DNA of 64,000 bases from an uncultured Desulfobacterales bacterium (GCA_964573615.1 CAZNKD010000065.1:5843-69842); one strand, 5' to 3'. Numbered from the stretch's first letter, positions 35,291 to 64,000 are shown. A program made the numbers and translations. Notes: a model not told the origin generated them from the letters alone.

Positions 35291-36670
35291 ATGGTGCAGG
35301 ATTCTTTCAAAAAAGGCCTCCGGGATGCCCCCTGGGCCCTGCTCTGCCCTTTTTGGGCCCTCTTCTGCCTTGCTCTCCTCGCTACACCCTTGGGGACCTG
35401 GGCGGCTCAAGGCCCAAAGGCGCTGAAACGGGCCGAACGGGTCACACGGCTCGGCTCCGGGCAGATAGAGATGTGCCTTTCATGCCACTTCGAGGAGCTA
35501 GACAAGGCCCACAGCCGTGAAGCCGCAGGATGCTGGTCCTGTCACCTTGGAAATCCCCTTGCAGGCACGCCAGAGCTCGCCCACAAGGGCATGGTCCTGA
35601 ATCCGGGAGAGCTCCAAGTTGTGGAAAAGACCTGCGGAAGGAGCGGCTGCCACGCCACAGATGCCCGGGACATCAAAAAGACCCTGATGGCCACCAACAG
35701 GGGGATCATCTCCACCCTCAGATTCTACTGGGGAGAGGAGGATGACAATGAATCGAAACTGACAGTGGAGGAGCTGATAAGGACGGGAAAGAACTCCCCT
35801 GCCCTCGACTATTTCAGAAAGCTGTGCGGTACATGTCACCTCTGGCTTGAAAGACACCGCTATCCCGGCTTCCTCGGCGAAAAGGGTGGCGGATGCAGCG
35901 CCTGCCACCTTAAAGATAGAGAGCAGGGGACAAAGGGGGCACCCCATCCCCGTGTCACAAAGGCCATCGGGCTTGAAAACTGCGTGCGTTGCCACAACAG
36001 GAGTGGCCGCATCGGCCTTTCATATCAGGGCAAGTATGAATCAGAGGGGTATGGGACCCCGTTTGATGGGGCCGATTTCAGTGAAAGTCAGTTGCCGGAC
36101 GGCAGATTCATCTGGAAGGGCCTTCCCCCCGACGTCCATTTCACCAAGGGGCTCGTCTGCATAGACTGTCACACCAGAAAAGAGGCCATGGGAGATGGAA
36201 GCTCACACGCACACCTTGAAGAGCAGGTGGAGATCAAATGCTCCACATGCCATACAGGGCAGAAGGAGCTTTCGAGGCTTGTTGCCGGCATGGACGATGA
36301 CAAATCACGGCTCCCGAAGATAACCGGGCTCAAAAGGGAGATTGACGGAGCGATCTTTCAAGAGGGCAAGCTGAACAAGAAGCGCTACAGGCTCTCTCCG
36401 CCAGACGATAGGTGCATGAGCCCGGTACATGAACGGCTCTCATGCCAGGCATGTCACTCAAGATGGGTCCCCCAGTGCTATGGCTGCCATGTGAGGATGG
36501 ATGGGTCAAGGGAGCAGCTGGACAAGCTGAAGGGTGAGGCCACCCCGGGACTATGGCAGGAGTATAGATCCTTCATAAGGCTTGAGAGCCCTGTCCTTGG
36601 GGTCAAGATGGCCCACACCATCAGGGATGTGGCCCAGAAGGAGGAGATCGTGATCCTGGTTCCCGGCTGA
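35291..36670 (+). CDS. Periplasmic multiheme cytochrome c, as delimited by a TGA (see finding: possibly continues through it)
   Basis: It has a signal peptide. Nine CxxCH motifs are present (CLSCH, CWSCH, CGTCH, CSACH, CVRCH, CIDCH, CSTCH, CQACH, CYGCH), plus one CX4CH (CGRSGCH). Confidence 0.9.
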   Translation: MVQDSFKKGLRDAPWALLCPFWALFCLALLATPLGTWAAQGPKALKRAERVTRLGSGQIEMCLSCHFEELDKAHSREAAGCWSCHLGNPLAGTPELAHKGMVLNPGELQVVEKTCGRSGCHATDARDIKKTLMATNRGIISTLRFYWGEEDDNESKLTVEELIRTGKNSPALDYFRKLCGTCHLWLERHRYPGFLGEKGGGCSACHLKDREQGTKGAPHPRVTKAIGLENCVRCHNRSGRIGLSYQGKYESEGYGTPFDGADFSESQLPDGRFIWKGLPPDVHFTKGLVCIDCHTRKEAMGDGSSHAHLEEQVEIKCSTCHTGQKELSRLVAGMDDDKSRLPKITGLKREIDGAIFQEGKLNKKRYRLSPPDDRCMSPVHERLSCQACHSRWVPQCYGCHVRMDGSREQLDKLKGEATPGLWQEYRSFIRLESPVLGVKMAHTIRDVAQKEEIVILVPG

Positions 36671-36676
36671 CAGGAC

Positions 36677-36708
36677 TTCATCTCCTTTCTGGATGAAAGG
36701 GGAAGATG
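36677..36708 (+). other. SECIS-like stem-loop immediately 3' of the in-frame TGA
   Basis: Hand-folded. Positions 681-689 pair with 695-703, giving 9 bp including one G-U. The apical loop is UGGAU at 36690-36694. Two to three more pairs follow a 1x1 mismatch. The loop lies 19 nt after the UGA. Confidence 0.45.
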
Positions 36709-36742
36709 GCGAAAGGACTTCAAGAGGCTCACCGCCTCCTCC

Positions 36743-37147
36743 ATGGATCCGCACACCACGTCCAAAGAACCGCGTCCTTGCACAGAGTGCCACATGAACA
36801 CGAGGGCACTGGGGCTTGGGGCCGGGACATTGAGCATCGACGGCGATGCCTGGATCTTCTCCCCAATCCTTGCCGAAGACAAGGGGATTTTTGGCCATGG
36901 ACAGAGGCTGGATCAGTTCGTGACCCCTGAGGGCCGGCCGACAGTCCACATGTCAAGGCCGTGGCTCCGTCCATTCGACTCCGGTGAGCTTCTGAAGATC
37001 GTAAATGTGGGCCCGTGCCTGAAATGCCACAGGGACATGGAAGACCCGGTAATGAAGGGTTGGAAGAAGGGCTCACCGCCTACTCCATGCAGGTTCAGCC
37101 CGTTCAGGCAGTGGCCCCAAAAGATCATCCTCAACCCTCTTCCTTGA
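36743..37147 (+). CDS. Cytochrome c segment (2 CxxCH), most likely the C-terminal continuation of the preceding cytochrome
   Basis: CTECH and CLKCH motifs are present. It is in the same frame as 35291..36670. There is no SD and no signal peptide of its own. The 24 codons upstream, back to the TGA, are open. Confidence 0.6.
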   Translation: MDPHTTSKEPRPCTECHMNTRALGLGAGTLSIDGDAWIFSPILAEDKGIFGHGQRLDQFVTPEGRPTVHMSRPWLRPFDSGELLKIVNVGPCLKCHRDMEDPVMKGWKKGSPPTPCRFSPFRQWPQKIILNPLP

Positions 37148-50077: not shown

Positions 50078-53000
50078 TCACCCGGATATTCGCTGAATAC
50101 GGACCTGGGTACTGCTGAAATCCGGTATCCCGCCCAACAGGTCCACCATGGGAGTGTTGGCCAGGGCAGGGTCGAGATTTGTTACAAAATTGGAATTTAT
50201 TCCTCTTCCAAGGGAGGGATCCGGCAGCAGCCGATCCGCCTTGGCCACGGAAGGGCCACCAAGAAAGACCTCTGATGCCCTGCCAACCCTGAGGGGGCTG
50301 GCCCCGAGCTGGCTGTGACCGTAATGGTTGGATATGGCAATGCAGCCCCTTCGTATCATGGGCCCCACTTTGGCCCGGCCAACTACTCCACCCTTGGCAG
50401 ATGTACTCCTGGAGCTTACCCGCACCAGGTCTCCGGTGCCTATGCCAAGGGCGGCCGCATCGGCCTCATGGATATAAACGTGATTCTCCGGCATGATCTG
50501 CCGGGCTATCCGGTGCCATATGGTCCTTGATTGTGTATGGATATTGAGCTTGTGGGTAACCAGGGTGAAAGGAAATTCCCTCTTGTCCCGCTCAATGAGA
50601 TTCTGCCCCTGGCTGTCAGCGGGCAGGACCAGCTCTACCGTGCCGGAAAACCTGCTGCCATCCAGGCTGTTTCTTATACCGGAAAGCCTTTCATTGTAGA
50701 GCACCACCCGCTTAACCCCATGAAGAAAGCTGTTGCCGGAAAAGAGGCCCTCCCTGGGCAGAAAGATACCGCCTCTGGCCAGGGCATAGCAGAGCCTGCG
50801 CCAGATAGGCCGAGGAAGCAGATCCCGGAACTGGGCCACAGGATAGTTCTCCTGCACGAAGCCGATCTCATGTCCGGTGGCCTCCGGAACCCCTGCCGAA
50901 AGGACTATATTGGCCATACCGCGCAGGTAGAACTCCTCTGCCCTGAACAGATCCAGATCCCCCTCCTTTGAGGGGATGGCCCCCTTTCCAAAACCGGGAA
51001 GATCAAGGGCCAGGGCCAGGTCTATCAAAAAGGTCTCCAGGCAAAAGGGGCGTCCGTCTCTGGTCTTGCCGGTCAGGGGCTCTATCACTGGGGTCCTCAG
51101 GGCCGTGAACCTCTGGGCAGGCGCATGGGGTGCCAGCCATCCGTAGTGGCCCTCTGCAAAGGTGACATCCGGAACGATGTAGTCGGCATAGATGTTGGAT
51201 TCATTGATGCCTATGTCGATGGAGACGTGCAAGGGCACCTTGTCAGGGTCCTCAAGGGTGTCGATGAAACGATATCCGCCGGGGATGGAGTAGACCGGAT
51301 TGAAAAAATAGGTGAACAGCACCTTGCATCCATAGGGATATGCCTCATCGATTCCGGCCATGGTCTCCACACAGAGCCCTCCCTTGGTGAAGGGGAACCA
51401 GGGCCTCTTTGCCGGATAGCCCCTTTTACGAAACTCCAGGCTCTCTTCATATCTCGCCTTCTCCCTGGAGATGGCAACCCCTTTTGGCCTCCTTGCCCCG
51501 GGAAAGGTGCCAAGCTGACAAAAGCCATCCCTCCAGCCCCCTGCCTGACCGCCACCACTCATGTAGCCGCCCCTGGTCTCTACACTGCCCACGAGTACAT
51601 TGAGCAGTGCAATCGCATAGGAGGCATGGCTTCCGCCCACATAGTTTCCCGCCCCATGATACTGACAGACAGCGGCCCTTGGCCCATAGGAGGAAAACTC
51701 CTTTGCAAGTGAGGCTATCTCCTCTTCGTCCACGCCAGAGATGGTGGCGTACTCGGACAGCCCGTTTTGAAACACGGACTCCTTGAGGAGTCTGAAGGCG
51801 CTCTTCACCCTGATCCCTTTGCCATTGGCATCCATGAGGAGCGCTTCGGCATCATAGAGGGCACGGGCTGTCTTCTCGAAATGTACCGGAAGGTGCATCT
51901 CTCCCTGTGCCCCGGCATCGAGGACCACAAAGGCCTGCTCCTCACCTGCCGGACACTGCCTCATCAGATGGGAGAGTCTCAGAAATCTGCCTTCATCCTT
52001 GTGGCCGGGCTCCACGATCACAAGATGGGAGGCATTGCAATAAGCGCCGTTTCCAAGACGCTGGGCCGCACCGAGATTGGGCGCTGACAGATAATCATGG
52101 TTGATGGCCCCATTTTCTATCATCCACCTCATCATGCCCATGGCCAGGGCAGCATCGTGTCCAGGCCTGACGGCCACCCAGCGGCTTGCATGTGAAACCG
52201 CAGCATGACCCCTTGGATCGACCACACTGAAGCGCAGCCTTCCCTTGGAACTGCGCATGGCAACTGCAGCCCCATAGGTATTGACCCCGGGCTGCAGGGC
52301 GGAATAGATGTTGGCCCCAAAGACCAGGATATATTCCGCTTCCCAGGGATCTGCCTTCATCTCGACCTGCTTGCCTTCTGTCATGGTGAAGTTGCCCATG
52401 CGAAAGCCAAGGCCGCATATGTCGGTATGGCCAATGCGGTTTCTGGAGCCAAAGGCCTGCTTGACGAACCTGTCTATAAAGGCCTTGCGGCCATGCTGCA
52501 TCCTGCCTGATATGAAGACAAATGCGTTGCGCTTGGGACCAAGGCCCGGATCTGAAGGATCCACAGGCTCATCGGAGTCGAGTTCGGCAAGCCCGGGGAG
52601 ATCCCTGTCCTCTCCAAGATGCGCAAAGAGCCTGCCCCCTTTACTGATCTCCTCTATGAGCTGATCCCAGCTGATGGGTTCAAACCGGCCCTCTCCACGT
52701 TTTCCTGCCCGCTTCAATGGGACGAGCACCCGATACGGGCTGTAGACATAGCTTATGGAGTCTATGGCCTTTGCACAGACAGTGGCACTCTGGTCCGACA
52801 AGGCCTGGCTAAGAGGGGCACCATAAGATAAGGGCTGCCCCAGCATGTTGTATGGATGGTATGGGTTGCCCTTGAGGGCAGTAAGTCTTCCATCCTTTAC
52901 GACTGCCCTTATGCCGCACCTGGCATTACATGCAAGACAGACAGAAAATATGACCCTGTCATCCGATCCCTTTGGATCGGCGACACACCCAAGGAAGGAG

Positions 53001-53092
53001 GCAGCACGTTTCAAAAGACGCCTCCTGTCAATGCCCTTTCTATCCAGCCTCTCGTCCTGTCTGCCCATGGCTAAATCCTGAATATGGCCCAT
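50078..53092 (-). CDS. Tat-exported molybdopterin oxidoreductase catalytic subunit (tetrathionate/thiosulfate/polysulfide reductase-like, about 1000 aa)
   Basis: The twin-arginine signal is DRRRLLKRAASFLG. The N-terminal FeS motif is CLACNARCG. The length and overall layout match the bis-MGD family. The substrate is not assignable from sequence by eye. Confidence 0.85.
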   Translation of the reverse strand: MGHIQDLAMGRQDERLDRKGIDRRRLLKRAASFLGCVADPKGSDDRVIFSVCLACNARCGIRAVVKDGRLTALKGNPYHPYNMLGQPLSYGAPLSQALSDQSATVCAKAIDSISYVYSPYRVLVPLKRAGKRGEGRFEPISWDQLIEEISKGGRLFAHLGEDRDLPGLAELDSDEPVDPSDPGLGPKRNAFVFISGRMQHGRKAFIDRFVKQAFGSRNRIGHTDICGLGFRMGNFTMTEGKQVEMKADPWEAEYILVFGANIYSALQPGVNTYGAAVAMRSSKGRLRFSVVDPRGHAAVSHASRWVAVRPGHDAALAMGMMRWMIENGAINHDYLSAPNLGAAQRLGNGAYCNASHLVIVEPGHKDEGRFLRLSHLMRQCPAGEEQAFVVLDAGAQGEMHLPVHFEKTARALYDAEALLMDANGKGIRVKSAFRLLKESVFQNGLSEYATISGVDEEEIASLAKEFSSYGPRAAVCQYHGAGNYVGGSHASYAIALLNVLVGSVETRGGYMSGGGQAGGWRDGFCQLGTFPGARRPKGVAISREKARYEESLEFRKRGYPAKRPWFPFTKGGLCVETMAGIDEAYPYGCKVLFTYFFNPVYSIPGGYRFIDTLEDPDKVPLHVSIDIGINESNIYADYIVPDVTFAEGHYGWLAPHAPAQRFTALRTPVIEPLTGKTRDGRPFCLETFLIDLALALDLPGFGKGAIPSKEGDLDLFRAEEFYLRGMANIVLSAGVPEATGHEIGFVQENYPVAQFRDLLPRPIWRRLCYALARGGIFLPREGLFSGNSFLHGVKRVVLYNERLSGIRNSLDGSRFSGTVELVLPADSQGQNLIERDKREFPFTLVTHKLNIHTQSRTIWHRIARQIMPENHVYIHEADAAALGIGTGDLVRVSSRSTSAKGGVVGRAKVGPMIRRGCIAISNHYGHSQLGASPLRVGRASEVFLGGPSVAKADRLLPDPSLGRGINSNFVTNLDPALANTPMVDLLGGIPDFSSTQVRIQRISG

Positions 53093-53862
53093 TAAACCTG
53101 TTCTTCCGCCTCACCCCTTAGACCTACATAGAAGACATGGAACATTTCTGCCGCCTCCCCGTGTGGACCTGCAAGAAGGCTGCTGCTTCCGCCTTTTTCT
53201 GCCCTGGCCAGATAGGTGGCAAATTCGCCTTCCGGATGCTCCAGATCCCCGAATAGCCTGGCCCTGCTCGGACACGCCTCTACACAGGCCGGCACAAGCC
53301 CCTCATCCAGCCTGTCTGCACACAGGTCACAGGCATTTGCCCTGTTTCCCAGGCCAGGATCCGGAAATCTCATCCCGTAAGGACATGCTTCAATACAGGC
53401 ACCGTCTGCACTGCAAAGCTCCCAGTCGGTAACCACCATGCCCGACTCCAGCCTTTTTATGGCCCCATTGGGACAGGCCCTCATGCAGGCAGCGTTCTCA
53501 CAGTGAAAACACATGACCGGCACGAAAAGAGGTCTCATCCTTCCATCTTTTTTCTCCACGATCCTCGACTCGATCCTCGTAAGAAGGGGCAGGCAGGCCG
53601 GATCTTTGGAGGCCTTGCAGGCGCTCACGCAGGACTGGCACCCCATGCATCTTGTAAGGTCGATTATCATTGCCAGGCGCCTGCCCATATGGGCAAGTCC
53701 CTTCTCTCCGCTGCCTGATGCTGTTTCACCATGGATCACGGCACCGGCAGCCAGGACCGAACAGACGCCCTTTAGAAATCCCCTCCTCGATATGCCTGCC
53801 CCCTTTCCATACCTGGGGCCCTTGCCCGCATCACTGCACTCCGTGCCGTCTTTGATCTTCAT
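53092..53862 (-). CDS. 4Fe-4S ferredoxin-type electron-transfer subunit with Tat signal
   Basis: The start is placed at MKIKDG. The Tat signal is SRRGFLKG. Multiple CxxCxxCxxxC(P) clusters are present (CMGCQSCVSAC, CFHCENAACMRACP, CSADGACIEACP). Confidence 0.85.
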   Translation of the reverse strand: MKIKDGTECSDAGKGPRYGKGAGISRRGFLKGVCSVLAAGAVIHGETASGSGEKGLAHMGRRLAMIIDLTRCMGCQSCVSACKASKDPACLPLLTRIESRIVEKKDGRMRPLFVPVMCFHCENAACMRACPNGAIKRLESGMVVTDWELCSADGACIEACPYGMRFPDPGLGNRANACDLCADRLDEGLVPACVEACPSRARLFGDLEHPEGEFATYLARAEKGGSSSLLAGPHGEAAEMFHVFYVGLRGEAEEQV

Positions 53863-53863
53863 T

Positions 53864-54958
53864 CTACTTGCCTTCACATCTCTCCCTTGTCTTGGCCCGG
53901 CCCCCTGAAGGATCTGGAGAAAAGGTGATCCGATAGCTGAAGGCCTTGGGCTCCAGCCAATCCAGGCTCTCAGTGCCAACCTGTGCAAAAGGGTACATGA
54001 GGTAATTCAACGGCTTGCCATACTGCCTGGGATTCAGGGTCAGGTCCCTGCCGTATGACAACCTCAACCGATATGGATCGACACTGCCCCAGAAATACTC
54101 CTTGAGCCGCCGAATATAGGGATGATCCTTTGAATAGCCGGTCTTCAGAACCGCCTTGGTGACATCAGCAGGGTCCACTACCACCCATCCGTAGCCAGGA
54201 TGATAGAACTCGGCCCAGCAGTGGTAATCCCCTGTGATCTCCGCCTCCTGCCGATCATCTCTGGAAAGGCGTATGCCAAAGACCTCCCTGGCAGGCACGC
54301 CGGCAGCCCGGGCAAGGGCCACAAACACCGAATGGAGATCCACACACTTTCCTCCTTTCCTGTCCAGGACCAGGCAGACGTCTCCCCGGCCACAGCCCTT
54401 GACAGATGGATCCCTGTGCAGGCATTCACATATCCAGTCGTAGATGGCCCTTGCCTTGGCCTGAACACCCGTACAGCCCCTGGTGATCTCGTCTGCAAGC
54501 TCTTTTACCCTGCCGGTAACCGGCCCAAGGCTCGTAGGGGCCAGATAGGGCTGAAGTGCCGCCAGATCCAAGCAGGGCTCCCTATCTGGAAGAGGGCCCT
54601 CTTTTCGCTCAAGGCGCCTGACGTGAAAGGAGAGGCAAAAGCGTCTTGGCTGCTGATCTCCCGGCCTCCACAAGACAAAGAGGATCGGATTTTGAAATCT
54701 TCTATCTGTATAAACGGCAGCATGATCCTGTGTGCCAGAGATCTCGATGGAGTCCACAACCTGCCATTTGTCAGAAACTGGATACGGAAGCCAGAGCCTG
54801 ACCTCGTCGCTTGTAGGATATCTTGAAAGGTCAAACTCCATTACAACCGTGCCTGAGACGCAACCTGCTCCTTCAGCGGCAAAGGCCGGATTGTACATGG
54901 AGGCCAGAAGCAAGAGTGCGAAAAAAAGCCGAAGAGACGAGAGAAGAATCATTGCCAC
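53864..54958 (-). CDS. Secreted transglutaminase-like (Cys-His-Asp) domain protein
   Basis: It has a signal peptide. The catalytic-core pattern reads GGKCVDLHSVFVALARAAGVPAR...YHCWAEFYHPGYGWVVVDPAD. Confidence 0.8.
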   Translation of the reverse strand: MAMILLSSLRLFFALLLLASMYNPAFAAEGAGCVSGTVVMEFDLSRYPTSDEVRLWLPYPVSDKWQVVDSIEISGTQDHAAVYTDRRFQNPILFVLWRPGDQQPRRFCLSFHVRRLERKEGPLPDREPCLDLAALQPYLAPTSLGPVTGRVKELADEITRGCTGVQAKARAIYDWICECLHRDPSVKGCGRGDVCLVLDRKGGKCVDLHSVFVALARAAGVPAREVFGIRLSRDDRQEAEITGDYHCWAEFYHPGYGWVVVDPADVTKAVLKTGYSKDHPYIRRLKEYFWGSVDPYRLRLSYGRDLTLNPRQYGKPLNYLMYPFAQVGTESLDWLEPKAFSYRITFSPDPSGGRAKTRERCEGK

Positions 54959-55212: not shown

Positions 55213-55953
55213 CTATTTCAGGATCGGCCTGGCGTAGGTGGGCTGGACCGGACGATTGTTGGGGTGATGCATCACATGGGCAAACTTCTCCACCTGCTCT
55301 TTTGAGACCGTGGCATACTTTTTAAGCACTATCCAGCGAACACCCTCGGTACAGGGCGGTGTCGTAAGGGAGCCGTTGAAGCGATAGTAGTCACGATCCT
55401 CTGGCAGGAGATCATAGGGCTTGAACTCTGGCTCAAGGCTTGCGCTTTCACCGGCCTTTTCTGGCATTTTGGCCCAGAGCTTCTCAATTATCTCGTTCTT
55501 CTCTCCCTCCTCGAACATGAGGGCGACAACGGTCAGGTTTCCGTCCTCATCCGCATGGACAAAGTGGGCCTCCATGGGGAAGTATTTGCCCTCTATGGTA
55601 TTCTCACTCGGGGTATGGAAATGGAACTGGAGAAGGGTGAATGTGCGTCCATCCAGGGTGATGGTGCTCCCCTTGTCACAATTGATCTGGATGGAGTGGC
55701 CATTGTTCACGATATTGTTCCACTTTCCATTATCGGTGTAGGTCATGGGCTCAAGCTCAGCCTCTATGAAGCCCTTCAGATCGATAGGGGCCTGATTCCT
55801 ACCCTTTGCGCACATCTCATACGCAGGATCAAGGGCACCCCAGTGCTCCGGGGCTTCATTGCCAGTATATCCCCAGTGTGCATGTCCAGCGGCAAAGGCT
55901 GTTCCTGCAATGAGGGCGGCCCCAGAGATCATGGCAGCTACTTTCTTTTTCAT
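55213..55953 (-). CDS. Alpha-class carbonic anhydrase, secreted
   Basis: It has a signal peptide. Motifs HWGY...PEHWG, SPI-type block QAPIDL, QFHFHTPSEN (zinc His) and LTTPPCTEGV are present. Confidence 0.92.
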   Translation of the reverse strand: MKKKVAAMISGAALIAGTAFAAGHAHWGYTGNEAPEHWGALDPAYEMCAKGRNQAPIDLKGFIEAELEPMTYTDNGKWNNIVNNGHSIQINCDKGSTITLDGRTFTLLQFHFHTPSENTIEGKYFPMEAHFVHADEDGNLTVVALMFEEGEKNEIIEKLWAKMPEKAGESASLEPEFKPYDLLPEDRDYYRFNGSLTTPPCTEGVRWIVLKKYATVSKEQVEKFAHVMHHPNNRPVQPTYARPILK

Positions 55954-56182: not shown

Positions 56183-56692
56183 ATGAGGATATTGATGCTT
56201 ACAGCAGACCAGTTTGAAGACAGCGAACTCCTGTGTCCCATGTATCGATTCAAGGAGGCAGGTTTTCAGGTAGATATCGCTGCCCCCGATTGGGGACAGA
56301 TAAAGGGAAAGCATGGCTATACAGTCAGCGCCAATCTCTCTCTGGACGATGTGGCGCCAAGCGCCTTTGACATGCTATATCTGCCCGGTGGAAAGGCGCC
56401 GGACAAATTGAGATATGATGACAGGGTGCTGGCCATAGCAAAGGAGATCCATCAGGCAGGAAAACCGATAGCGGCCATTTGCCATGGCCCTCTCATTCTG
56501 GCAGATGCAGGTATCTTGAATGGCCGGCGGGCCACTTGTTACTGGAAGATAGAGGAACAGCTCAGGAAGGCGGGGGCAATCTATGAAAATTCGCCCGTGG
56601 TGGTGGATGAAAACCTCATAACCTCAAGAGAGCCCAAAGATATTCCAGAGTTCATGCGCGAGATCATGAAAGGCCTCGGAAAATTGGGCTGA
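56183..56692 (+). CDS. DJ-1/PfpI-family protein
   Basis: 169 aa. The nucleophile-elbow motif is IAAICHGPLIL and the family block LYLPGG is present. Confidence 0.88.
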   Translation: MRILMLTADQFEDSELLCPMYRFKEAGFQVDIAAPDWGQIKGKHGYTVSANLSLDDVAPSAFDMLYLPGGKAPDKLRYDDRVLAIAKEIHQAGKPIAAICHGPLILADAGILNGRRATCYWKIEEQLRKAGAIYENSPVVVDENLITSREPKDIPEFMREIMKGLGKLG

Positions 56693-58896: not shown

Positions 58897-60188
58897 TATC
58901 TGAACACGTTAGGCCCCCAGAATGGGAAGTAATCACTGGCACCATAGTCCAGGAGAAGCCTTTGTCCTTGGCCATCTGCAAACATCACAAAGAGGCTCTT
59001 CTTGCCCCCTCGCCTGGTGGATGAAAAGAGTATCTGTCTGCCATCAGGGGACCATGTAGGGTTCTCGTTACTCCCCTCCTCAGTGAGCTGGGCAGGCTCT
59101 CCGCCATCAGGAGATATGGTAAAGATATGGAAACGCCCTGCCATCCTGCTCACATATACGATCCTGTCCCCCCTGGGAGACCACTGGGGGTCGGTATTGT
59201 AGCTACCTGAGAAGGTGAGCCTCCGCACCCTCAGTGTAGCCAGATCCATTATGTAGAGCTGGGGTGAGCCGCTTCTGTCGGAGACGAAGACTATGCGGTT
59301 GCCATCTGGTGAAAAGGATGGAGATACATTTATCCCCGGCCCCCTGGTGAGTCTCTTGAGGATCCTGCCATTCAGATCCATCAGATAGAGATCAGGGTTT
59401 CCGGACTTGCTAAGGGTGACGCACAGCCGCCTGCTGTCTGGTGCCCATGCTGGTGACATGTTCAGACCTGAATGGGATGAAAGCCTCCTGACCTGACCTG
59501 TCGATCTGTCCTTGAGATAGAGGCAGGGCCTTCCGCTCTTGAAGGATACGAATACGATATAGCGTCCATCAGGAGAGTAGCGAGGAGACATGACAATGCT
59601 TTTTTCACGGGTCTCCTGCCTGATATCGAGTCCATCAAACTGGGCAGAATAGACCTCCTGCCCCCTCGATGAGCGTGAGACAAACAGAATCCTCGAAAGG
59701 CTTACACCGTGCTCCCCTGTTATGGCCAGGATTATCTCGTCACAGAACCTGTGACAGACACGATCGAGATCCGAGGCCGATGAGATATAGCGCTTCCCGG
59801 AGATCATCTCTCCAGAGGCCCTGTCCATCAACCTCAGCTCCACCACAAGCTCTCCACCCCTGTCTTCGACACGGCCTATCACCTCGTAGTCAGGGGCCCT
59901 GCCTGGAACGCCTGTATCGAAGGAGATCACGGAGAAAAAGCCGTGAAAGAGCAAATCCTTGGAGAGCCTGGTGATTATGCGTCTTACCGACTGGGCCTCG
60001 GAAGGGGTGCCATTGGCCGGTGAGATCTTGACCAGACTGATAGGGATCTTCCTGACATAGGGAGATGAGATGTCTATATAGAGCTTTCCGGCCCCCACCC
60101 TGGACACACCCGGCACAAAAAAGGAGGTGAGGAGCAGGACAAACAACGCTGCTACGATGATCCGTTGTGGTCTGTTTTCCTCATACAT
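58896..60188 (-). CDS. tolB: Tol-Pal system beta-propeller protein TolB
   Basis: Repeated SPDG propeller motifs are present (YSPDGRYIVFVS, FSPDGNRIVFVSDRSG, WSPRGDRIVYVS, WSPDGRQILFSS). The start is placed at MYEENRPQ, just before the signal peptide. Confidence 0.9.
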   Translation of the reverse strand: MYEENRPQRIIVAALFVLLLTSFFVPGVSRVGAGKLYIDISSPYVRKIPISLVKISPANGTPSEAQSVRRIITRLSKDLLFHGFFSVISFDTGVPGRAPDYEVIGRVEDRGGELVVELRLMDRASGEMISGKRYISSASDLDRVCHRFCDEIILAITGEHGVSLSRILFVSRSSRGQEVYSAQFDGLDIRQETREKSIVMSPRYSPDGRYIVFVSFKSGRPCLYLKDRSTGQVRRLSSHSGLNMSPAWAPDSRRLCVTLSKSGNPDLYLMDLNGRILKRLTRGPGINVSPSFSPDGNRIVFVSDRSGSPQLYIMDLATLRVRRLTFSGSYNTDPQWSPRGDRIVYVSRMAGRFHIFTISPDGGEPAQLTEEGSNENPTWSPDGRQILFSSTRRGGKKSLFVMFADGQGQRLLLDYGASDYFPFWGPNVFR

Positions 60189-60220
60189 GGGCAAAATTAT
60201 ACGTGAATCGGGACTGAATG

Positions 60221-60263
60221 AAAACAAAAAAGCCCCGGCCGCCTTGTTGGCTACCGGGGCTTT
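60221..60263 (-). terminator. Rho-independent terminator after the YTD-type cluster
   Basis: The minus strand reads AAAGCCCCGG-uagccaacaaggcgg-CCGGGGCUUU followed by UUUGUUUUC, 45 nt after the last gene's stop. Confidence 0.7.
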
Positions 60264-60307
60264 ATGTCTTGTCTTCTTGATGGTGTGAGGGATCCAGGAA
60301 TCCTCTC

Positions 60308-60499
60308 TTACCACCAGCTTATTACCTGGTCAGCATCCCAGATCATCTGTACCAGGGTATCATAGTTGGGATCATTCATATAGAGTTTGAACTCCATGAC
60401 ATCCCTGTCCCTGTTGAGGATCTCCACAAGCTTCTTGGTGTCCTCGTTGGGCTCTGAACGGTAAACATGCAATATTTTCATTTTCTTTTCGTCGCTCAT
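60308..60499 (-). CDS. Small conserved hypothetical protein (63 aa), fifth gene of the YedE-TusA-DsrE cluster
   Basis: It is tightly packed, 13 nt after the preceding gene. I recognise no motif beyond a DsrH-like N-terminal beta strand (KILHVY). Confidence 0.55.
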   Translation of the reverse strand: MSDEKKMKILHVYRSEPNEDTKKLVEILNRDRDVMEFKLYMNDPNYDTLVQMIWDADQVISWW

Positions 60500-60512
60500 G
60501 AGTCACCCCCTC

Positions 60513-60854
60513 TTAGTCTTCTGAACATGCTGGTGGAGGAGTCTTGGACTGCTTGGGCAGGCCGTAAGGAATGATGTAATCGGCCTCACGAAGCCTCTCG
60601 CCCAGCTCTTCCAGGCTCAGTTTGGTGAGCTCAACGCCCTCGACATCATCGCCGTCGATGGTGAAGACATCACCCTCCATATCCTTGATCCACTCGATGT
60701 TTTCCTTCACATAGTCGGAAAAACGGGGATACTCGTTGTACATAAAACACGGATATGCATAGTGGTTCTCCACTGCGAGACCCAGTGCGGAGCGCACTGC
60801 ATCCCCTGCATACATCCGGTTCTGCATTATGAAGTAGCACTTTTTGGATTCCAT
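60513..60854 (-). CDS. Conserved hypothetical protein (113 aa), DsrE/F-fold-like, fourth gene of the cluster
   Basis: It is tightly packed. The N-terminus KCYFIMQNRMYAGDAVRSALGLA resembles the DsrE/DsrF fold, but I see no obvious active-site Cys in the DsrE position. Confidence 0.55.
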   Translation of the reverse strand: MESKKCYFIMQNRMYAGDAVRSALGLAVENHYAYPCFMYNEYPRFSDYVKENIEWIKDMEGDVFTIDGDDVEGVELTKLSLEELGERLREADYIIPYGLPKQSKTPPPACSED

Positions 60855-60871
60855 CTTCTATGCCTCCTTGA

Positions 60872-61204
60872 TTACAGCACCAGGTATTTGCCGCACTCGT
60901 CGATGATAGCACCGTGATAGGCCTGGGTCCTCATCTGACGCGGGGTCAGTCCCTTGGGGACGTCGGTCTCCACGTCATAGCCCTCACAGGTGTAGCTGTC
61001 TGCGCAGATGGCCAGGTCTTCCACTTCGCACATGTTTGCCAATGTCACGAAGTCAGGATGCTTGGTCAGGTGAACGGACTTGAATGTGAAGAACACCATG
61101 ACCTTCTTGCCGGCGCGTGTGGCAGCAGCGGCAACACCCACCACATGCCTCATGTACTGGGGCGATGTTACGAATATTCCAAGTTTGTTGGGATCAGCAG
61201 ACAT
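60872..61204 (-). CDS. DsrE-family sulfur-relay protein
   Basis: 110 aa. KLGIFVTSPQYMRHVVGVAAAA... then AICADSYTCEGY, a DsrE/DsrF-like fold with conserved Cys residues. Confidence 0.7.
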   Translation of the reverse strand: MSADPNKLGIFVTSPQYMRHVVGVAAAATRAGKKVMVFFTFKSVHLTKHPDFVTLANMCEVEDLAICADSYTCEGYDVETDVPKGLTPRQMRTQAYHGAIIDECGKYLVL

Positions 61205-61241
61205 TAGTCTAAACCTCCTTTTGATCTCGGAGAATCGGTTG

Positions 61242-61499
61242 TTACTTCTTCTTTACGTAGAAGCGGATGAATCCGTCGTCTTCCTTCTCACCCAGATACT
61301 CGTGTCCGGCGCGGGCACACCAGCCGGGGATGTCGTTCCTGGAACCGGGATCGGTTCCGAGGATCTCCAGGATCTCACCAGAGTTGATCTTCTCGATCTC
61401 CTTCTTGGTCCTCAGCAGAGGCATCGGGCAGCTCAGTCCCTTTGCATCCAGAGTCCTTGCTACCTGCAATCCGTCAGGGGCCTGTTTGATGTCGCTCAT
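61242..61499 (-). CDS. tusA: TusA/SirA-family sulfurtransferase
   Basis: 85 aa with the canonical LDAKGLSCPMPLLRTKK (CPxP) motif. Confidence 0.9.
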   Translation of the reverse strand: MSDIKQAPDGLQVARTLDAKGLSCPMPLLRTKKEIEKINSGEILEILGTDPGSRNDIPGWCARAGHEYLGEKEDDGFIRFYVKKK

Positions 61500-61619
61500 A
61501 ACTCCTCCTTTTTACTATTTTTTATTTATGCCTGAAAAAAATTTATCCAGACGGCCCAAGGGCCGGTGCTCTCCCGATTGCCGGCCCCGAGTCTTTCTCT
61601 AATCAATCAAGGCTCAAGC

Positions 61620-62954
61620 CTACATCTCAACGATGAGCTTGTTGCTGTCCTCGTTCCAGTCAACGATAAGGTACCAGAGGAACATCATGAATACAATCAA
61701 GGCTAGGGTGCCGCCATAGCCCAGGACCCTGGGCAGGTATATGTGGTATCCGAGCTTGCTGCCCTCGTGCATCAGGCCCACACCCTCCATCTTCATCGCC
61801 TTGAACCAGCTGGTCATGATGGCATTGGTTATGCCAAAGAAGGGAACCACGAGCCAGAGCTTTACCTGGCCCTCACCCACACGCCAGAGGGTACCTGAAC
61901 CACAGCCGCCTGCCAGCATGGCACCAAAGCCGAAGAGGAAGCCGCCGAGGATTCCACCCCAGCCAAAGGTACCGCGGACATAGTTGTCCGGGTTCAGAAC
62001 GGCCTGGGCCCTCAAGGATGCGGCCTCGGCTGCATCGATGACGTCATCCAGGGTATCTGCCAAATCCTCGTCATCTATCTCGTCTGTGTCGATATCCTCC
62101 ACGACACTCAGCATGGAGGTGATCTCAGCGGCCCTCATGGGCACATAGTACTTGAGCACAGCTCCACCGATGGCCAGGACCACCAGGCTGATGGCCACGG
62201 ACTTGGCCAGGGTGCAGTCTCCTGTCATGTGGGGCTCACGAAAGGCCTGGACCATGCACCAGCGTCCGCGCTGCATGGTGTAGCCAAGGCCTGCCGAGAT
62301 GAGAAGGATGCCGCTCAGGGAGGCGACATAGGCATCGGTATTGCCTGAATAGACATATGCGCCCCAAATCAGGGCCACTGCCGTGCCAAGCCCGAGTATG
62401 ACCTTGAGGGCAAATGGAAAGTCTATGGTCTTTCCGCCGCTGATACCCCAGGTGATGTGCTCCATCTCCCAGTAGATGTACTTGAGGCCGACCACCACGC
62501 CGATAACCAGGCCGAGCCACATGGTAAAACCGTTTGCGGCCAGGTTTCCGATGGCATTGTACATACCGCCTACGTTACAGCCGCCGGCGAATGCAGAGCC
62601 CACACCCATGAGTATGCCTGCCATTACTGCCTTGACCAGCTCCCAGGGCGGCGGGATCCGGATGGCAAAATCGTTTCCGAGACAGGCAGAGAGAAAGGCG
62701 CCTGCCACAAAGCCAATACCTATGACGGAGCCGGAATTGGTCCAGAAACCGGCTGGTGTATGGTCCCAAAGCCCAACACCATAGAGTATCCACTCACCCC
62801 AGTTCCTGATGGCTCCAACTGCACCCCAGGGCCTCCACCAAGCCATGATCATGATGCTCAAGATGGCCACGATGATACCGGCCACTGTGGCATTCCACTC
62901 GGTCTGGCAGAGACCTTTGAAGATACCCTTGGCCTTTTCACCCAAAGAACTCAT
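61620..62954 (-). CDS. YedE/YeeE-family sulfur (thiosulfate/selenium)-compound transporter with an acidic loop insertion
   Basis: 444 aa and polytopic. Conserved Cys motifs are CLGNDFA, GGCNVGG and GGCGSG. An acidic insert VEDIDTDEIDDEDLADTLDDVIDAAE spans residues 284-312. Confidence 0.85.
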   Translation of the reverse strand: MSSLGEKAKGIFKGLCQTEWNATVAGIIVAILSIMIMAWWRPWGAVGAIRNWGEWILYGVGLWDHTPAGFWTNSGSVIGIGFVAGAFLSACLGNDFAIRIPPPWELVKAVMAGILMGVGSAFAGGCNVGGMYNAIGNLAANGFTMWLGLVIGVVVGLKYIYWEMEHITWGISGGKTIDFPFALKVILGLGTAVALIWGAYVYSGNTDAYVASLSGILLISAGLGYTMQRGRWCMVQAFREPHMTGDCTLAKSVAISLVVLAIGGAVLKYYVPMRAAEITSMLSVVEDIDTDEIDDEDLADTLDDVIDAAEAASLRAQAVLNPDNYVRGTFGWGGILGGFLFGFGAMLAGGCGSGTLWRVGEGQVKLWLVVPFFGITNAIMTSWFKAMKMEGVGLMHEGSKLGYHIYLPRVLGYGGTLALIVFMMFLWYLIVDWNEDSNKLIVEM

Positions 62955-63061
62955 AGTCGCCTCTCCCCCTTGCTCAAAGAGTTTGTTTTGAGTTACCCGT
63001 TGCGCTCGTGAAGCTTAAAAGGTAATAACTTACAGGTACGGATATCGAGGTCTGTACCAAA

Positions 63062-63092
63062 ATTCAACATCCATGTCAAGAAGATGTTGAAT
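63062..63092. promoter_or_regulatory. Perfect 10-bp inverted repeat (operator-like) over a TTGACA -35 box of the putative yedE promoter
   Basis: ATTCAACATC-N11-GATGTTGAAT. On the minus strand the spacer contains TTGACA, with TACAGA 17 nt downstream. Confidence 0.5.
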
Positions 63093-63155
63093 GAGTATTC
63101 AGTCTTTCTGCCCGGTTGAATCTCAGTTTCAAAATCTACAATGAGGTGAAATCAC

Positions 63156-64000
63156 ATGATTTTTCCCAAGCTGTTAGGGCTTGCAATAGCGCTGTTCTTC
63201 ATCTGCTTGATGGCCGCTGAGATGGCCCAGGCAGGCGAGGCCTCTGCCATCCATGTAAAGAGGCTGAAAAACGGGCTCAGCGCCATCGTGAAAGAGAGCC
63301 ACAGGGCCCCTGTGGTAGCGGTGCAGATATGGGTGCGGGCAGGCAGCACCTTCGAAACAGAGAAGCAGGCCGGGATCACCCATCTCATCGAGCACATGAT
63401 ATTCAAGGGCACAGAGAGGCGGCCGCCAGGTGAGCTTGCCCGCACCATAGAGTCCCTTGGAGGGACCATCAATGCATATACTTCCTACGACTATACGGTA
63501 TATCACTGTGTGGTGCCCAAGGATCACCTGGATACTGCCCTGGACATCCTGGAGGATGCGGTCTTCCACTCCACCTTCGACCCCCAGGAGTTGGAGCGGG
63601 AAAAGGAGGTGGTGCTGGAGGAGATGCGCATGAGAAACGACCGCCCCCAGACCGTGCTCTTCGAGGATCTCATGAGGATCTCATACCAGAAGCTACCCTA
63701 CAAAAGGCCGATAATAGGCTATGAGGAGACGGTGAGATCCTTTACCAGGGACGACATCCTGAAATACATGGCAGACCGCTACAGGCCGGCACACATGGCT
63801 GTAGTTGTCACAGGCGACGTGGACGGAAAGGATGCCATATCGAGGATAGAAGCCATCTTCTCCAAGGAGCCCAAGGAGCCCGCCCTCGAGATGGTCTTTC
63901 CAAAGGAGCCGAAACAGGGCGACATACGCCTTTCAATAAAAGAGATGGACTGCCAGCAGGCATACCTTGCGCTCTCCTTTTCCGGCCTGCCGGGCTTCGA
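63156..64000 (+). CDS. M16-family (insulinase/pitrilysin-like) zinc peptidase, N-terminal part (runs off the window)
   Basis: My own translation from the ATG at 63156 (SD GAGGTG) gives a signal peptide. The HxxEH zinc motif is GITHLIEHMIFKG, and the downstream Glu block is EREKEVVLEEM. Confidence 0.85.
   Translation, partial: MIFPKLLGLAIALFFICLMAAEMAQAGEASAIHVKRLKNGLSAIVKESHRAPVVAVQIWVRAGSTFETEKQAGITHLIEHMIFKGTERRPPGELARTIESLGGTINAYTSYDYTVYHCVVPKDHLDTALDILEDAVFHSTFDPQELEREKEVVLEEMRMRNDRPQTVLFEDLMRISYQKLPYKRPIIGYEETVRSFTRDDILKYMADRYRPAHMAVVVTGDVDGKDAISRIEAIFSKEPKEPALEMVFPKEPKQGDIRLSIKEMDCQQAYLALSFSGLPGF

Follow-up and report, generated by a model that had tools for sequence, protein, structure and literature searches.

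The five tightly packed minus-strand genes at positions 60308-62954 of the window, by which we mean the whole 64-kb stretch of DNA analysed, probably form one transcription unit for a sulfur import-and-relay chain. The first-pass annotation had considered the two small proteins of this cluster unassignable and its mechanism unresolved, a view that is out of date, as papers from 2026 name the two proteins as DsrF and DsrH of the DsrEFH type II system and attach in vitro activity to them. By itself the cluster adds little, being one more among about a thousand known genomes with yedE-tusA-dsrEFH type II, and its presence suggests a capacity of the source organism to channel sulfane sulfur into the Dsr pathway.

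Gene content and identity of the cluster

The five ORFs agree in coordinates and lengths with the first-pass annotation; each is preceded by a GGAGG-type ribosome-binding site, and the intergenic gaps from yedE to the last gene measure 120, 37, 17 and 13 nt. Two antisense ORFs, 61080-61535 (+) and 62457-63011 (+), overlap this conserved coding sequence on the opposite strand and were taken as spurious. The source organism, which is uncultured, is related to Dissulfuribacter and to metagenome-assembled genomes labelled 'Thermodesulfatator'. All four genes tusA-dsrE-chp1-chp2 adjoin yedE, in co-directional or divergent arrangement, in 64 of the 67 related loci with enough flanking DNA, and thus the five-gene order, including the two small ORFs, is not a matter of chance. 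The genes correspond to the YTD cluster as it has been defined (PMC9676032, PMC13293266), with a yedE-related gene, tusA, one dsrE-like gene and a pair of small genes, and its identification as YTD-type was correct.

The yedE-like gene (61620-62954, minus strand) encodes a protein of 444 aa with a Pfam Sulf_transp match (4.7e-37) and about ten membrane segments predicted from hydropathy. The family alignment contains conserved Gly, Cys and Arg columns and three conserved cysteine motifs, GGC126NVG, RGRWC233 and GGC351GSG. The protein matches StYeeE of Spirochaeta thermophila (6LEO; E=6e-15) with its halves swapped and E. coli TsuA (E=1e-21) in permuted order, and it is colinear with E. coli YedE. 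Cys233, Cys351 and Cys126 align to Cys22, Cys91 and Cys293 of StYeeE, together with the RGRxC and GGCxxG motifs. In the transporter, halves arranged as in YedE, and swapped with respect to YeeE/TsuA, therefore go together with a retained cysteine triad of YeeE, a combination that we did not find in the literature on this system. Its scores with the NCBIfam TsuA models were 85 bits (cut-off 400) and 69 bits (cut-off 645), and it is not colinear with the 9-helix YeeE.

The following gene, tusA (61242-61499, minus strand; 85 aa), carries the motif GLSCPMP, in which C24PMP represents the CPxP active-site cysteine. Its Pfam TusA match (1.1e-26; 92.8 bits, cut-off 28.6) places it in the TusA family; the NCBIfam TusA model gave 62.7 bits, below the E. 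coli TusA equivalog cut-off of 78, and the TsuB/YeeD model 19.6 bits (cut-off 147.5). The protein is 68-96% identical across 70 related loci. The dsrE-like gene (60872-61204, minus strand) encodes 110 aa, with the sulfur-binding Cys67 in LAIC67ADSYTC. In Pfam the protein matched DrsE_2 only (E=0.13), and weak DrsE_2 and DsrE signals occurred in 17 and 6, respectively, of 50 family members. It has 208 homologues, and C67, C73 and C104 are invariant in an alignment of 50 sequences. It is 70% identical to a 110-aa protein of Candidatus Electronema sp., with which it shares the LAICADSYTCEGYD motif, and Cys67 is the active residue of DsrE in Electronema aureum (PMC13293266).

Neither of the two small proteins, CHP1 and CHP2, had a meaningful Pfam match. 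The CHP1 gene (60513-60854, minus strand; 113 aa), characterized through its homologues and predicted fold, has 340 homologues, with 60% identity to those of Ca. Electronema halotolerans and Desulfolithobacter dissulfuricans (GF1_30720), and lacks an invariant cysteine. Its AlphaFold2 model (pLDDT 90.8) gave as best two Foldseek matches in the PDB the DsrE/DsrF-family structures 2qs7 and 3pnx (probability 0.99-1.0, TM 0.49-0.61, E ~0.009), and CHP1 is thus modelled as a DsrE/DsrF-like fold. The CHP2 gene (60308-60499, minus strand; 63 aa) has 131 homologues of 63-95% identity, the Desulfobulbus and Desulfogranum orthologues among them at 63-70%; the protein has no cysteine and ends in an invariant C-terminal WW. 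The order of elements in its AlphaFold2 model (pLDDT 90.4) is beta-alpha-beta-alpha-beta, for which Foldseek returned nothing significant in the PDB but generic Rossmann-like fragments (E>0.3). Of the Foldseek searches that had been suggested for both proteins, the one for CHP1 thus yielded a DsrE/DsrF-like match, and that for CHP2 no significant one. CHP2 is probably DsrH type II, as suggested by its position and its orthology to the co-purifying partner of DsrE and DsrF in E. aureum (PMC13293266).

Judged by identities of 60-70%, the window proteins are clear orthologues of the DsrEFH type II proteins that cable bacteria and Desulfobulbales possess, a comparison made with sequences of Ca. 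Electronema sp., Ca. Electronema halotolerans, Desulfobulbus and Desulfogranum. Of the features by which DsrEFH type II is recognised, three syntenic homologous genes, the conserved Cys67 of DsrE and synteny with tusA and yeeE/yedE are present. The same DsrEFH-like assignment was reached elsewhere by means of AlphaFold-Multimer models (PMC13047784).

Promoter region and acidic loop of the transporter

The predicted promoter (63051..63079, minus strand) consists of a -35 box TTGACA (63079-63074), a 17-nt spacer containing a third TGAAT, and an extended -10 box TGgTACAGA (63059-63051). It was read directly from the sequence; a generic sigma-70 scan did not list it. The module was matched by regular expression in 14 related loci and aligned, so that the promoter suggested by the first-pass annotation is borne out as a conserved element. 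The other two TGAAT copies belong to a palindrome, TGAATACTCATTCA (TGAAT-N4-ATTCA; 63088..63101, minus strand), also written TGAATGGCCATTCA, which ends 8 nt upstream of the -35 box and is a candidate site for a dimeric transcription factor. This palindrome occurs once within the 64-kb window, is kept in the alignment of the twelve closest relatives (L001-L012), and 55 of 80 related loci contain it at most 450 nt upstream of yedE, where chance would account for about two. The geometry of palindrome, 8 nt and TTGA is unchanged in loci where tusA, not yedE, is the gene that the palindrome faces. No papers were retrieved by a literature search with three spellings of the palindrome, and its placement 8 nt upstream of the -35 box may be new to the literature on this system.

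Between promoter and yedE lies a 5' leader of about 90-100 nt (62955..63050, minus strand) with partly conserved blocks in the alignment, namely TTATTA..CTTT and an invariant GCA inside a TTCAyGCAA-like block, followed by the ribosome-binding site GGGGGAGAGG; Rfam matched no family within 60100-63300. The yedE-tusA spacer (61500..61619, minus strand) contains a GC-rich hairpin, which was rejected as an attenuator after folding against shuffled sequences and comparison with relatives, being no stabler than the shuffles (z=-1.17) and absent from the relatives, whose spacers are 55-85 nt long and AT-rich. A scan of this spacer on the same strand found neither a promoter-like nor a terminator-like site. 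Downstream of the cluster stands a Rho-independent terminator (60221..60263, minus strand), formed by GCCCCGG...CCGGGGC and U6GU4 (UUUUUUGUUUU), with a folding energy of -31 kcal/mol and z=-6.97, a stability equalled by 0 of 200 shuffles; beyond it follow a promoter-like TATAAT of tolB and the tolB start. The earlier description of five genes enclosed between a promoter and a clear terminator was therefore accurate, and since a single conserved promoter-operator module precedes the five genes and a single strong terminator follows, they would form one transcription unit. In Dissulfuribacter thermophilus, however, the abundances of TusA and the YTD YedE shift in opposite directions between conditions (PMC13490349), which argues against simple co-regulation.

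The acidic 29-residue loop that had been pointed out in the transporter is real, its coordinates were exact, and it is absent from characterized YeeE. It belongs to a long loop (61989..62132, minus strand; aa 275-322) that ends just before the conserved NYVR327GTFGW, and its acidic core (aa 284-312, nt 62019-62105; VVEDIDTDEIDDEDLADTLDDVIDAAEAA) contains 14 D/E and no K/R. A loop length of 67-70 aa between fixed anchors, with 14-16 D/E, is restricted to the window and L001-L012; in 65 of 80 loci the loop measures 20-39 aa, mostly 28, and in 3 of the 80 it carries a different 65-aa insert. The acidic insertion thus amounts to about 40 residues and occurs only in the window and the 12 relatives closest to it. 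The loop aligns with the periplasmic StYeeE loop that carries the thiosulfate-binding Lys67 (PMC7449682), and the conserved Arg327, directly next to the insertion, aligns with Lys67 itself at the periplasmic mouth of StYeeE. By homology to StYeeE, the insertion would be located at the periplasmic substrate entrance. It may have been gained in one hydrothermal-vent lineage, possibly as a feature that has not been described before, and could change what is imported, whether by gating the channel, by cation-dependent capture or by docking a periplasmic sulfur carrier. Being specific to one clade and placed at the predicted mouth of the channel, the acidic insertion offers natural variation with which the determinants of substrate choice in YedE/YeeE transporters could be examined.

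Likewise, the regulator of DsrEFH type II, and with it the physiological signal, could be sought through the conserved candidate operator; whether this system serves oxidation or disproportionation in vivo is a matter of dispute. The joint reading that TGAAT-N4-ATTCA is the operator for a regulator of DsrEFH type II across Desulfobacterota and that the acidic insertion also alters import through the channel is possible, albeit on the whole doubtful.

Proposed sulfur relay and alternative functions

In the relay that we propose, the channel of YedE architecture would take inorganic sulfur from the periplasm, likely sulfane sulfur or polysulfide and possibly thiosulfate, and move it along three cysteines, the outer one being Cys126 and the inner ones Cys351 and Cys233. 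After a presumed hand-over from the transporter, TusA would accept the sulfur as a persulfide on Cys24 and pass it to Cys67 of DsrE within a DsrE-DsrF-DsrH type II complex, in which CHP1 (DsrF) and CHP2 (DsrH) would be non-catalytic scaffold subunits. The complex would then load DsrC, which carries the substrate of dissimilatory sulfite reductase, and the sulfur could subsequently be oxidised to sulfite. The corresponding E. aureum proteins co-purify in a 1:1:1 ratio, and in vitro sulfur is transferred in both directions between TusA and DsrE, dependent on Cys67, and in one direction only from DsrEFH to DsrC (PMC13293266). The direction of flow in vivo is our inference, and others prefer sulfite or disproportionation chemistry over a reversed Dsr pathway (PMC13047784). 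Expression at the protein level in relatives has been reported (PMC13490349; PMC9751629 as cited in PMC13047784). A search of the large ORFs of the 64-kb window revealed no dsr gene, and thus the DsrC/DsrAB partner is assumed rather than seen. Among the 985 genomes carrying DsrEFH type II, 73.9% have reductive dsrAB (PMC13293266). A Ttr-like molybdoenzyme is encoded 7 kb away from the cluster, an observation that fits a sulfane-sulfur-to-Dsr reading.

The retained YeeE cysteines and the matches to StYeeE and E. coli TsuA described above would also suit assimilatory thiosulfate uptake by a YeeE/YeeD (TsuA/TsuB) system, in which the TusA-like protein splits thiosulfate to sulfite and sulfide for cysteine and the DsrE-like proteins serve as acceptors. 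Moreover, a TusA-family gene follows the transporter gene as yeeD follows yeeE, and a DsrEFH-like complex has been proposed as the acceptor for YeeD-bound sulfur species (PMC13047784). Such a function is nevertheless unlikely, given that the TsuA and TsuB scores fall far below their cut-offs, that the transporter halves stand in YedE and not in YeeE order, and that the partner scores as TusA and not as YeeD. In addition, the E. aureum orthologues were unreactive with thiosulfate in vitro, and the family follows genomes with dissimilatory dsrAB, not assimilation genes (PMC13293266). A YedE/YedF-type route of selenium uptake and trafficking that supplies the organism's selenoprotein machinery had been raised by the first-pass annotation and appears extremely improbable. 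E. coli YedE, with which the transporter is indeed colinear, carries an annotation as putative selenium transporter, TusA gives a sub-threshold YedF match, a multihaem cytochrome ORF at a distance of 24 kb contains a candidate in-frame TGA, and a YedE-like protein has been implicated in selenium transport in Methanococcus maripaludis (as cited in PMC11582611). However, all NCBIfam/TIGRFAM selenium models remained far under their cut-offs, with 73 bits against 350 for the selenium YedE/FdhT model, 22.8 against 200 for seleno_YedE, and 40.8 against 79 and 33.4 against 110 for YedF, and the longer YedF model TIGR03527 (194 positions) was matched over its first 68 positions only, the TusA-like part. 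E. coli YedE also lacks two of the three cysteine motifs kept here, the transporter gene is constantly accompanied by dsrEFH type II genes and not by sel genes, and neither selD, selA or selB nor other selenium-utilisation genes were found among the scanned large ORFs of the 64-kb window.

According to the original YTD hypothesis, the cluster would be a dedicated marker and engine of disproportionation, with CHP1 and CHP2 contributing disproportionation-specific catalysis unrelated to DsrEFH. In line with this, the closest named relatives are the disproportionators Dissulfuribacter, Dissulfurimicrobium, Dissulfurirhabdus, Desulfocapsa and Desulfolithobacter, and YTD proteins in D. dissulfuricans, as well as TusA in D. 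thermophilus, were more abundant during thiosulfate disproportionation (PMC13047784, PMC13490349). However, only 25 of 63 cultured disproportionators (40%) carry the cluster and many non-disproportionating sulfate reducers do so (PMC13293266), and Thermodesulfatator indicus, despite possessing it, did not disproportionate (PMC9676032). The use of YTD as a marker of disproportionators, put forward in the first-pass annotation, is thereby weakened. The predicted DsrE/F-like fold of CHP1 also speaks against a catalysis unrelated to DsrEFH, and since CHP2 has no cysteine and CHP1 no invariant one, a catalytic sulfur role of either protein is unlikely. Taken as a whole, the original hypothesis seems very unlikely.

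Relation to known sulfur-transfer systems

With E. coli YedE/YedF and the selenium-associated YedE/FdhT, the window transporter shares the order of its halves, a similar length and a TusA-like gene that follows. It differs from them in its gene neighbourhood and in not reaching the selenium models, and E. coli YedE keeps only one of the three cysteine motifs. The YeeE/TsuA transporters with their YeeD/TsuB partners (S. thermophila, 6LEO and 8J4C; E. coli) have Sulf_transp fold elements, three cysteines with their motifs and an adjacent TusA-family partner in common with the window. In contrast, the halves of the window transporter are swapped, it has about ten membrane segments instead of nine, its scores are far under the family cut-offs, and a long acidic insertion occupies the loop that in StYeeE holds the thiosulfate-binding Lys67.

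The canonical DsrEFH of Allochromatium vinosum (2HY5) and TusBCD of E. coli (2D1P) likewise consist of three small paralogous-type subunits in the order E, F, H, with the active cysteine in the E subunit, TusA as donor and DsrC as acceptor (PMC13293266), and the predicted fold of CHP1 is DsrE/F-like. Sequence similarity to these systems was nevertheless not detectable. Profile searches against all PDB sequences gave no match for the DsrE-like protein and for CHP1 only chance-level matches unrelated to DsrEFH/TusBCD, and hhalign against E. coli TusD, TusC and TusB produced short, topologically sensible local alignments (E=0.09, 0.06 and 0.53), none of them significant; paralogy among the three small-protein families was not detected by hhalign either. 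Moreover, the window DsrH has only 63 aa and no equivalent of Cys20, and DsrEFH type II goes together with reductive dsrAB, not with oxidative dsrAB as does the canonical system (PMC13293266).

The system of cable bacteria, DsrEFH type II with TusA and YeeE/YedE of E. aureum GS (PMC13293266), which is equivalent to the DsrE-like/Chp1/Chp2 part of YTD (PMC13047784), comprises the same five gene families. The subunits are of similar size, with 110 aa for DsrE, 113 versus 115 aa for DsrF and 63 versus 57-63 aa for DsrH, and both systems have DsrE Cys67 in the same motif, a cysteine-free DsrH and a tight tusA-dsrE-dsrF-dsrH operon. They differ in that yedE lies upstream on the same strand under a shared promoter in the window and about 20 close relatives, whereas it is divergent in most Desulfobulbales, and in that the acidic transporter insertion of about 40 residues is present in the window but missing from cable-bacterium-type genomes.

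Gene order and conservation of the YTD cluster

The YTD cluster occupies 60308-62954 of the window, where the ORF list returned five consecutive minus-strand genes with coordinates and lengths exactly as claimed in the first-pass annotation. From yedE onward these encode a YedE-like transporter (61620-62954; 444 aa; Pfam Sulf_transp, 4.7e-37), TusA (61242-61499; 85 aa; Pfam TusA, 1.1e-26), a DsrE-like protein (60872-61204; 110 aa) that matched Pfam DrsE_2 at E=0.13 only, and two small proteins, CHP1 (60513-60854; 113 aa) and CHP2 (60308-60499; 63 aa), for which nothing meaningful was matched in Pfam. The genes are separated by gaps of 120, 37, 17 and 13 nt, and a GGAGG-type ribosome-binding site precedes every one of them. 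The clear terminator that had been proposed was recovered 3' of CHP2 as a hairpin of -31 kcal/mol (z=-6.97) with a U-run behind it, beyond which lie a TATAAT box and tolB, followed by a TPR-repeat gene. Since the opposite flank is likewise bounded, by an M16 peptidase gene on the plus strand starting at 63156, the cluster forms a self-contained unit.

The closest matches came from MAGs of uncultured Deltaproteobacteria and 'Thermodesulfatator' (transporter 73-78%, DsrE 87-95% identity), and none of the three small proteins had an exact match in the protein collection, where the best hits were 91-96% identical. The source organism is probably a not yet described representative of the Dissulfuribacter/Thermodesulfobacteriota radiation. 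Scanning with the transporter, one genome per species, yielded 80 loci of 54-78% identity, nearly all from Desulfobacterota MAGs, plus Desulfosediminicola. When all five window proteins were searched against these loci by tblastn, yedE was found adjoining tusA-dsrE-chp1-chp2 in 64 of the 80, while 13 were truncated at contig ends and just three carried a yedE paralogue alone; conservation of the small genes beside yedE-tusA-dsrE, on which the earlier reading had been staked beforehand, is therefore borne out. The three solitary paralogues (L058, L072, L073), with no tusA-dsrEFH genes within the available flanking DNA, have a 36-aa loop containing a conserved cysteine (DAFDLDECPDAEGF) and FFGW replacing TFGW. 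All five genes share a strand in the window and in most of L001-L020, the loci nearest to it, and yedE is divergent from tusA-dsrEFH in most Desulfocapsa and Desulfobulbaceae loci. These two arrangements indicate that the constant unit is tusA-dsrE-dsrF-dsrH, with yedE always beside it, whichever way that gene points.

The window also contains flagellar, Tol-Pal, aldehyde:ferredoxin oxidoreductase and Ttr-like molybdoenzyme genes. The last of these, about 6-7 kb from the cluster (50078-53988, minus), encode a TtrA-like molybdopterin oxidoreductase of 1004 aa, whose 549 bits fall short of the TtrA cut-off of 1750, together with a TtrB-like 4Fe-4S subunit; the scan of neighbouring ORFs recognised neither a TtrC-like membrane subunit nor a TorD-like chaperone. 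Comparable 'Ttr homologue' and MOLY clusters have been discussed as disproportionation genes (PMC13490349, PMC9676032). Genes for a eukaryotic-type (alpha) carbonic anhydrase (55213-55953, minus; 1.1e-42) and a DJ-1/PfpI protein (56183-56692, plus) sit between the Ttr-like and Tol-Pal genes.

A conserved palindrome-promoter module

Upstream of yedE, at 63051-63101 on the minus strand, TGAATACTCATTCA is followed by 8 nt, TTGACA, 17 nt and TGgTACAGA, a module that is nearly identical across the twelve closest loci (L001-L012). Allowing one mismatch, TGAAT-N4-ATTCA was present in the 450 nt preceding yedE at 55 of the 80 loci (41 of them exact), compared with about 2 expected from its rate elsewhere in the same loci. 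In the divergent loci the palindrome, then 8 nt and TTGA, is oriented to tusA; with two exceptions, its distance upstream of the tusA start is 93-211 nt, most commonly 149-166 nt. Because the same geometry faces tusA there, one module appears to drive tusA-dsrEFH in those loci and the whole of yedE-tusA-dsrEFH in the window clade. The palindrome is likely the operator for a regulator of dsrEFH type II; our literature search for the motif found no paper.

Scans of the yedE-tusA spacer revealed no promoter-like or terminator-like sites, and the hairpin within it is neither significant nor conserved. Together with the one strong terminator, this makes co-transcription of all five genes the likeliest reading of the sequence. 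In Dissulfuribacter thermophilus the TusA and YTD YedE proteins were reported to shift oppositely with growth conditions (PMC13490349), which speaks against simple co-regulation. The yedE leader (62955-63050, minus; about 95 nt), which had no match in Rfam, contains blocks partly conserved with L001-L012, namely TTATTA..CTTT and an invariant GCA inside a TTCAyGCAA-like block.

Transporter architecture and the acidic loop

The transporter matches Spirochaeta thermophila YeeE (StYeeE, 6LEO) at E=6e-15 with its halves in reverse order: residues 217-259 align with YeeE 6-48 (Cys233 on Cys22), 333-379 with 73-119 (Cys351 on Cys91) and 49-151 with 219-315 (Cys126 on Cys293). E. coli YedE (L082:8278-9483) is colinear with the window protein, whereas E. 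coli TsuA/YeeE (L083:9468-10526) is permuted relative to it, and since the two E. coli proteins show the identical permutation to one another, the swapped order is a property of YedE versus YeeE families. However, the window transporter has all three YeeE cysteine motifs, of which E. coli YedE has only one, and its distance from the two E. coli proteins is about the same (65 and 49 bits). The most fitting name is a transporter of YedE architecture that has a YeeE-type cysteine triad; for this combination of swapped halves and retained triad we found no statement in the cited literature.

A link of this transporter to selenium metabolism, raised in the first-pass annotation, is not supported. 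The transporter scored far under every curated cut-off, TsuA and selenium YedE alike, the selenium-specific models being missed widely; its constant neighbours are dsrEFH, and the scan of the window's large ORFs showed no selenium-utilisation gene. Two ORFs for a multihaem cytochrome c-like protein at 35291-37147 (plus), in the same frame and split only by a TGA at 36668-36670 (…VILVPG*QDFISF…), presumably correspond to the candidate selenoprotein mentioned there; the in-frame TGA is a separate finding and uninformative on the transporter.

The acidic stretch described earlier lies exactly where it had been placed, at residues 284-312 (nt 62019-62105), with 14 D/E and no K/R. Measured in all 80 loci between the fixed anchors VLKY... 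and ...FGW, the loop comprises 67 aa in the window and is slightly longer in L001-L012 (68-70 aa); all of these carry 14-16 acidic residues and the conserved core DE(I/V)xD(E/Q)(D/E)LAD(T/A)(L/V)(E/D)(D/E). The remaining loci have loops of 20-39 aa, mostly 28 aa, except L014, L034 and L050, where it is 65 aa long with 9-11 acidic residues and an unlike sequence; the insertion is also missing from more distant family representatives. Its conservation in one clade and absence elsewhere argue for a lineage-specific insertion under selection rather than noise. The other insertion, of 65 aa, sits at this position in these three loci and in protein P0361, within a Desulfobulbia group; it was either gained independently or is the same insertion diverging quickly. 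The counterpart of the loop in StYeeE is residues 49-72, and in the HMMER alignment StYeeE Lys67 falls on window Arg327, within a near-invariant NYVRGTFGW motif immediately after the insertion. Hydropathy and the positive-inside count are compatible with a periplasmic side, and homology would place the acidic insertion at the periplasmic channel mouth, where possible roles include a gate, a cation-binding site or a docking surface.

Relation to the DsrEFH type II system

Protein-collection searches returned 340, 131 and 208 homologues of CHP1, CHP2 and the DsrE-like protein, respectively, which form large, well conserved families without annotation. Those relatives that have names come from sulfur disproportionators and cable bacteria: DsrE is 80-85% identical to proteins of Dissulfuribacter thermophilus, Dissulfurimicrobium and Dissulfurirhabdus, and others belong to Thermosulfurimonas, Thermosulfuriphilus, Desulfolithobacter, Desulfogranum and Candidatus Electronema. 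A 110-aa protein of Candidatus Electronema sp. shares 70% identity and the LAIC67ADSYTCEGYD motif with window DsrE, whose Cys67, Cys73 and Cys104 are invariant in an alignment of 50 homologues. Likewise, CHP1 is 60% identical to proteins of Ca. Electronema halotolerans and Desulfolithobacter (GF1_30720), and CHP2 is 63-70% identical to its Desulfobulbus and Desulfogranum orthologues and, similar to the reported DsrH type II, lacks cysteine. Sequence methods showed no connection of the three proteins to canonical DsrEFH/TusBCD, in agreement with PMC13293266 and PMC13047784. AlphaFold2 models were confident (pLDDT 90.8 for CHP1, 90.4 for CHP2); the top two Foldseek matches of CHP1 in the PDB were the DsrE/DsrF-family structures 2qs7 and 3pnx (probability 0.99-1.0, TM 0.49-0.61, but E only about 0.009), and CHP2 had no significant match. 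Close orthology and partial fold evidence thus suggest that DsrE and CHP1 are DsrE and DsrF type II, while orthology and position point to CHP2 as a probable DsrH type II.

In Electronema aureum, DsrE, DsrF and DsrH type II co-purify 1:1:1, DsrE is loaded by persulfidated TusA but its Cys67Ser variant is not, the complex transfers sulfur one-way to DsrC, and thiosulfate loads none of the proteins tested (PMC13293266). The genes occur in 985 genomes of 20 phyla, and reductive dsrAB is present in 73.9% of these genomes (PMC13293266), and AlphaFold-Multimer models led to the same DsrEFH-like double-trimer assignment (PMC13047784, BMC Genomics, March 2026). The two small proteins, initially considered to lack an assignable function, accordingly have literature assignments as DsrF and DsrH type II, to which the window proteins are orthologous (60-70%). 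The YTD naming was correct, whereas the mechanism can no longer be called unresolved, since the system was assigned and in part characterised in two papers from 2026. What is left as new is modest: an acidic insertion specific to one clade, placed by prediction at the channel mouth, and the conserved candidate operator. The cluster itself is another copy of an already known system.
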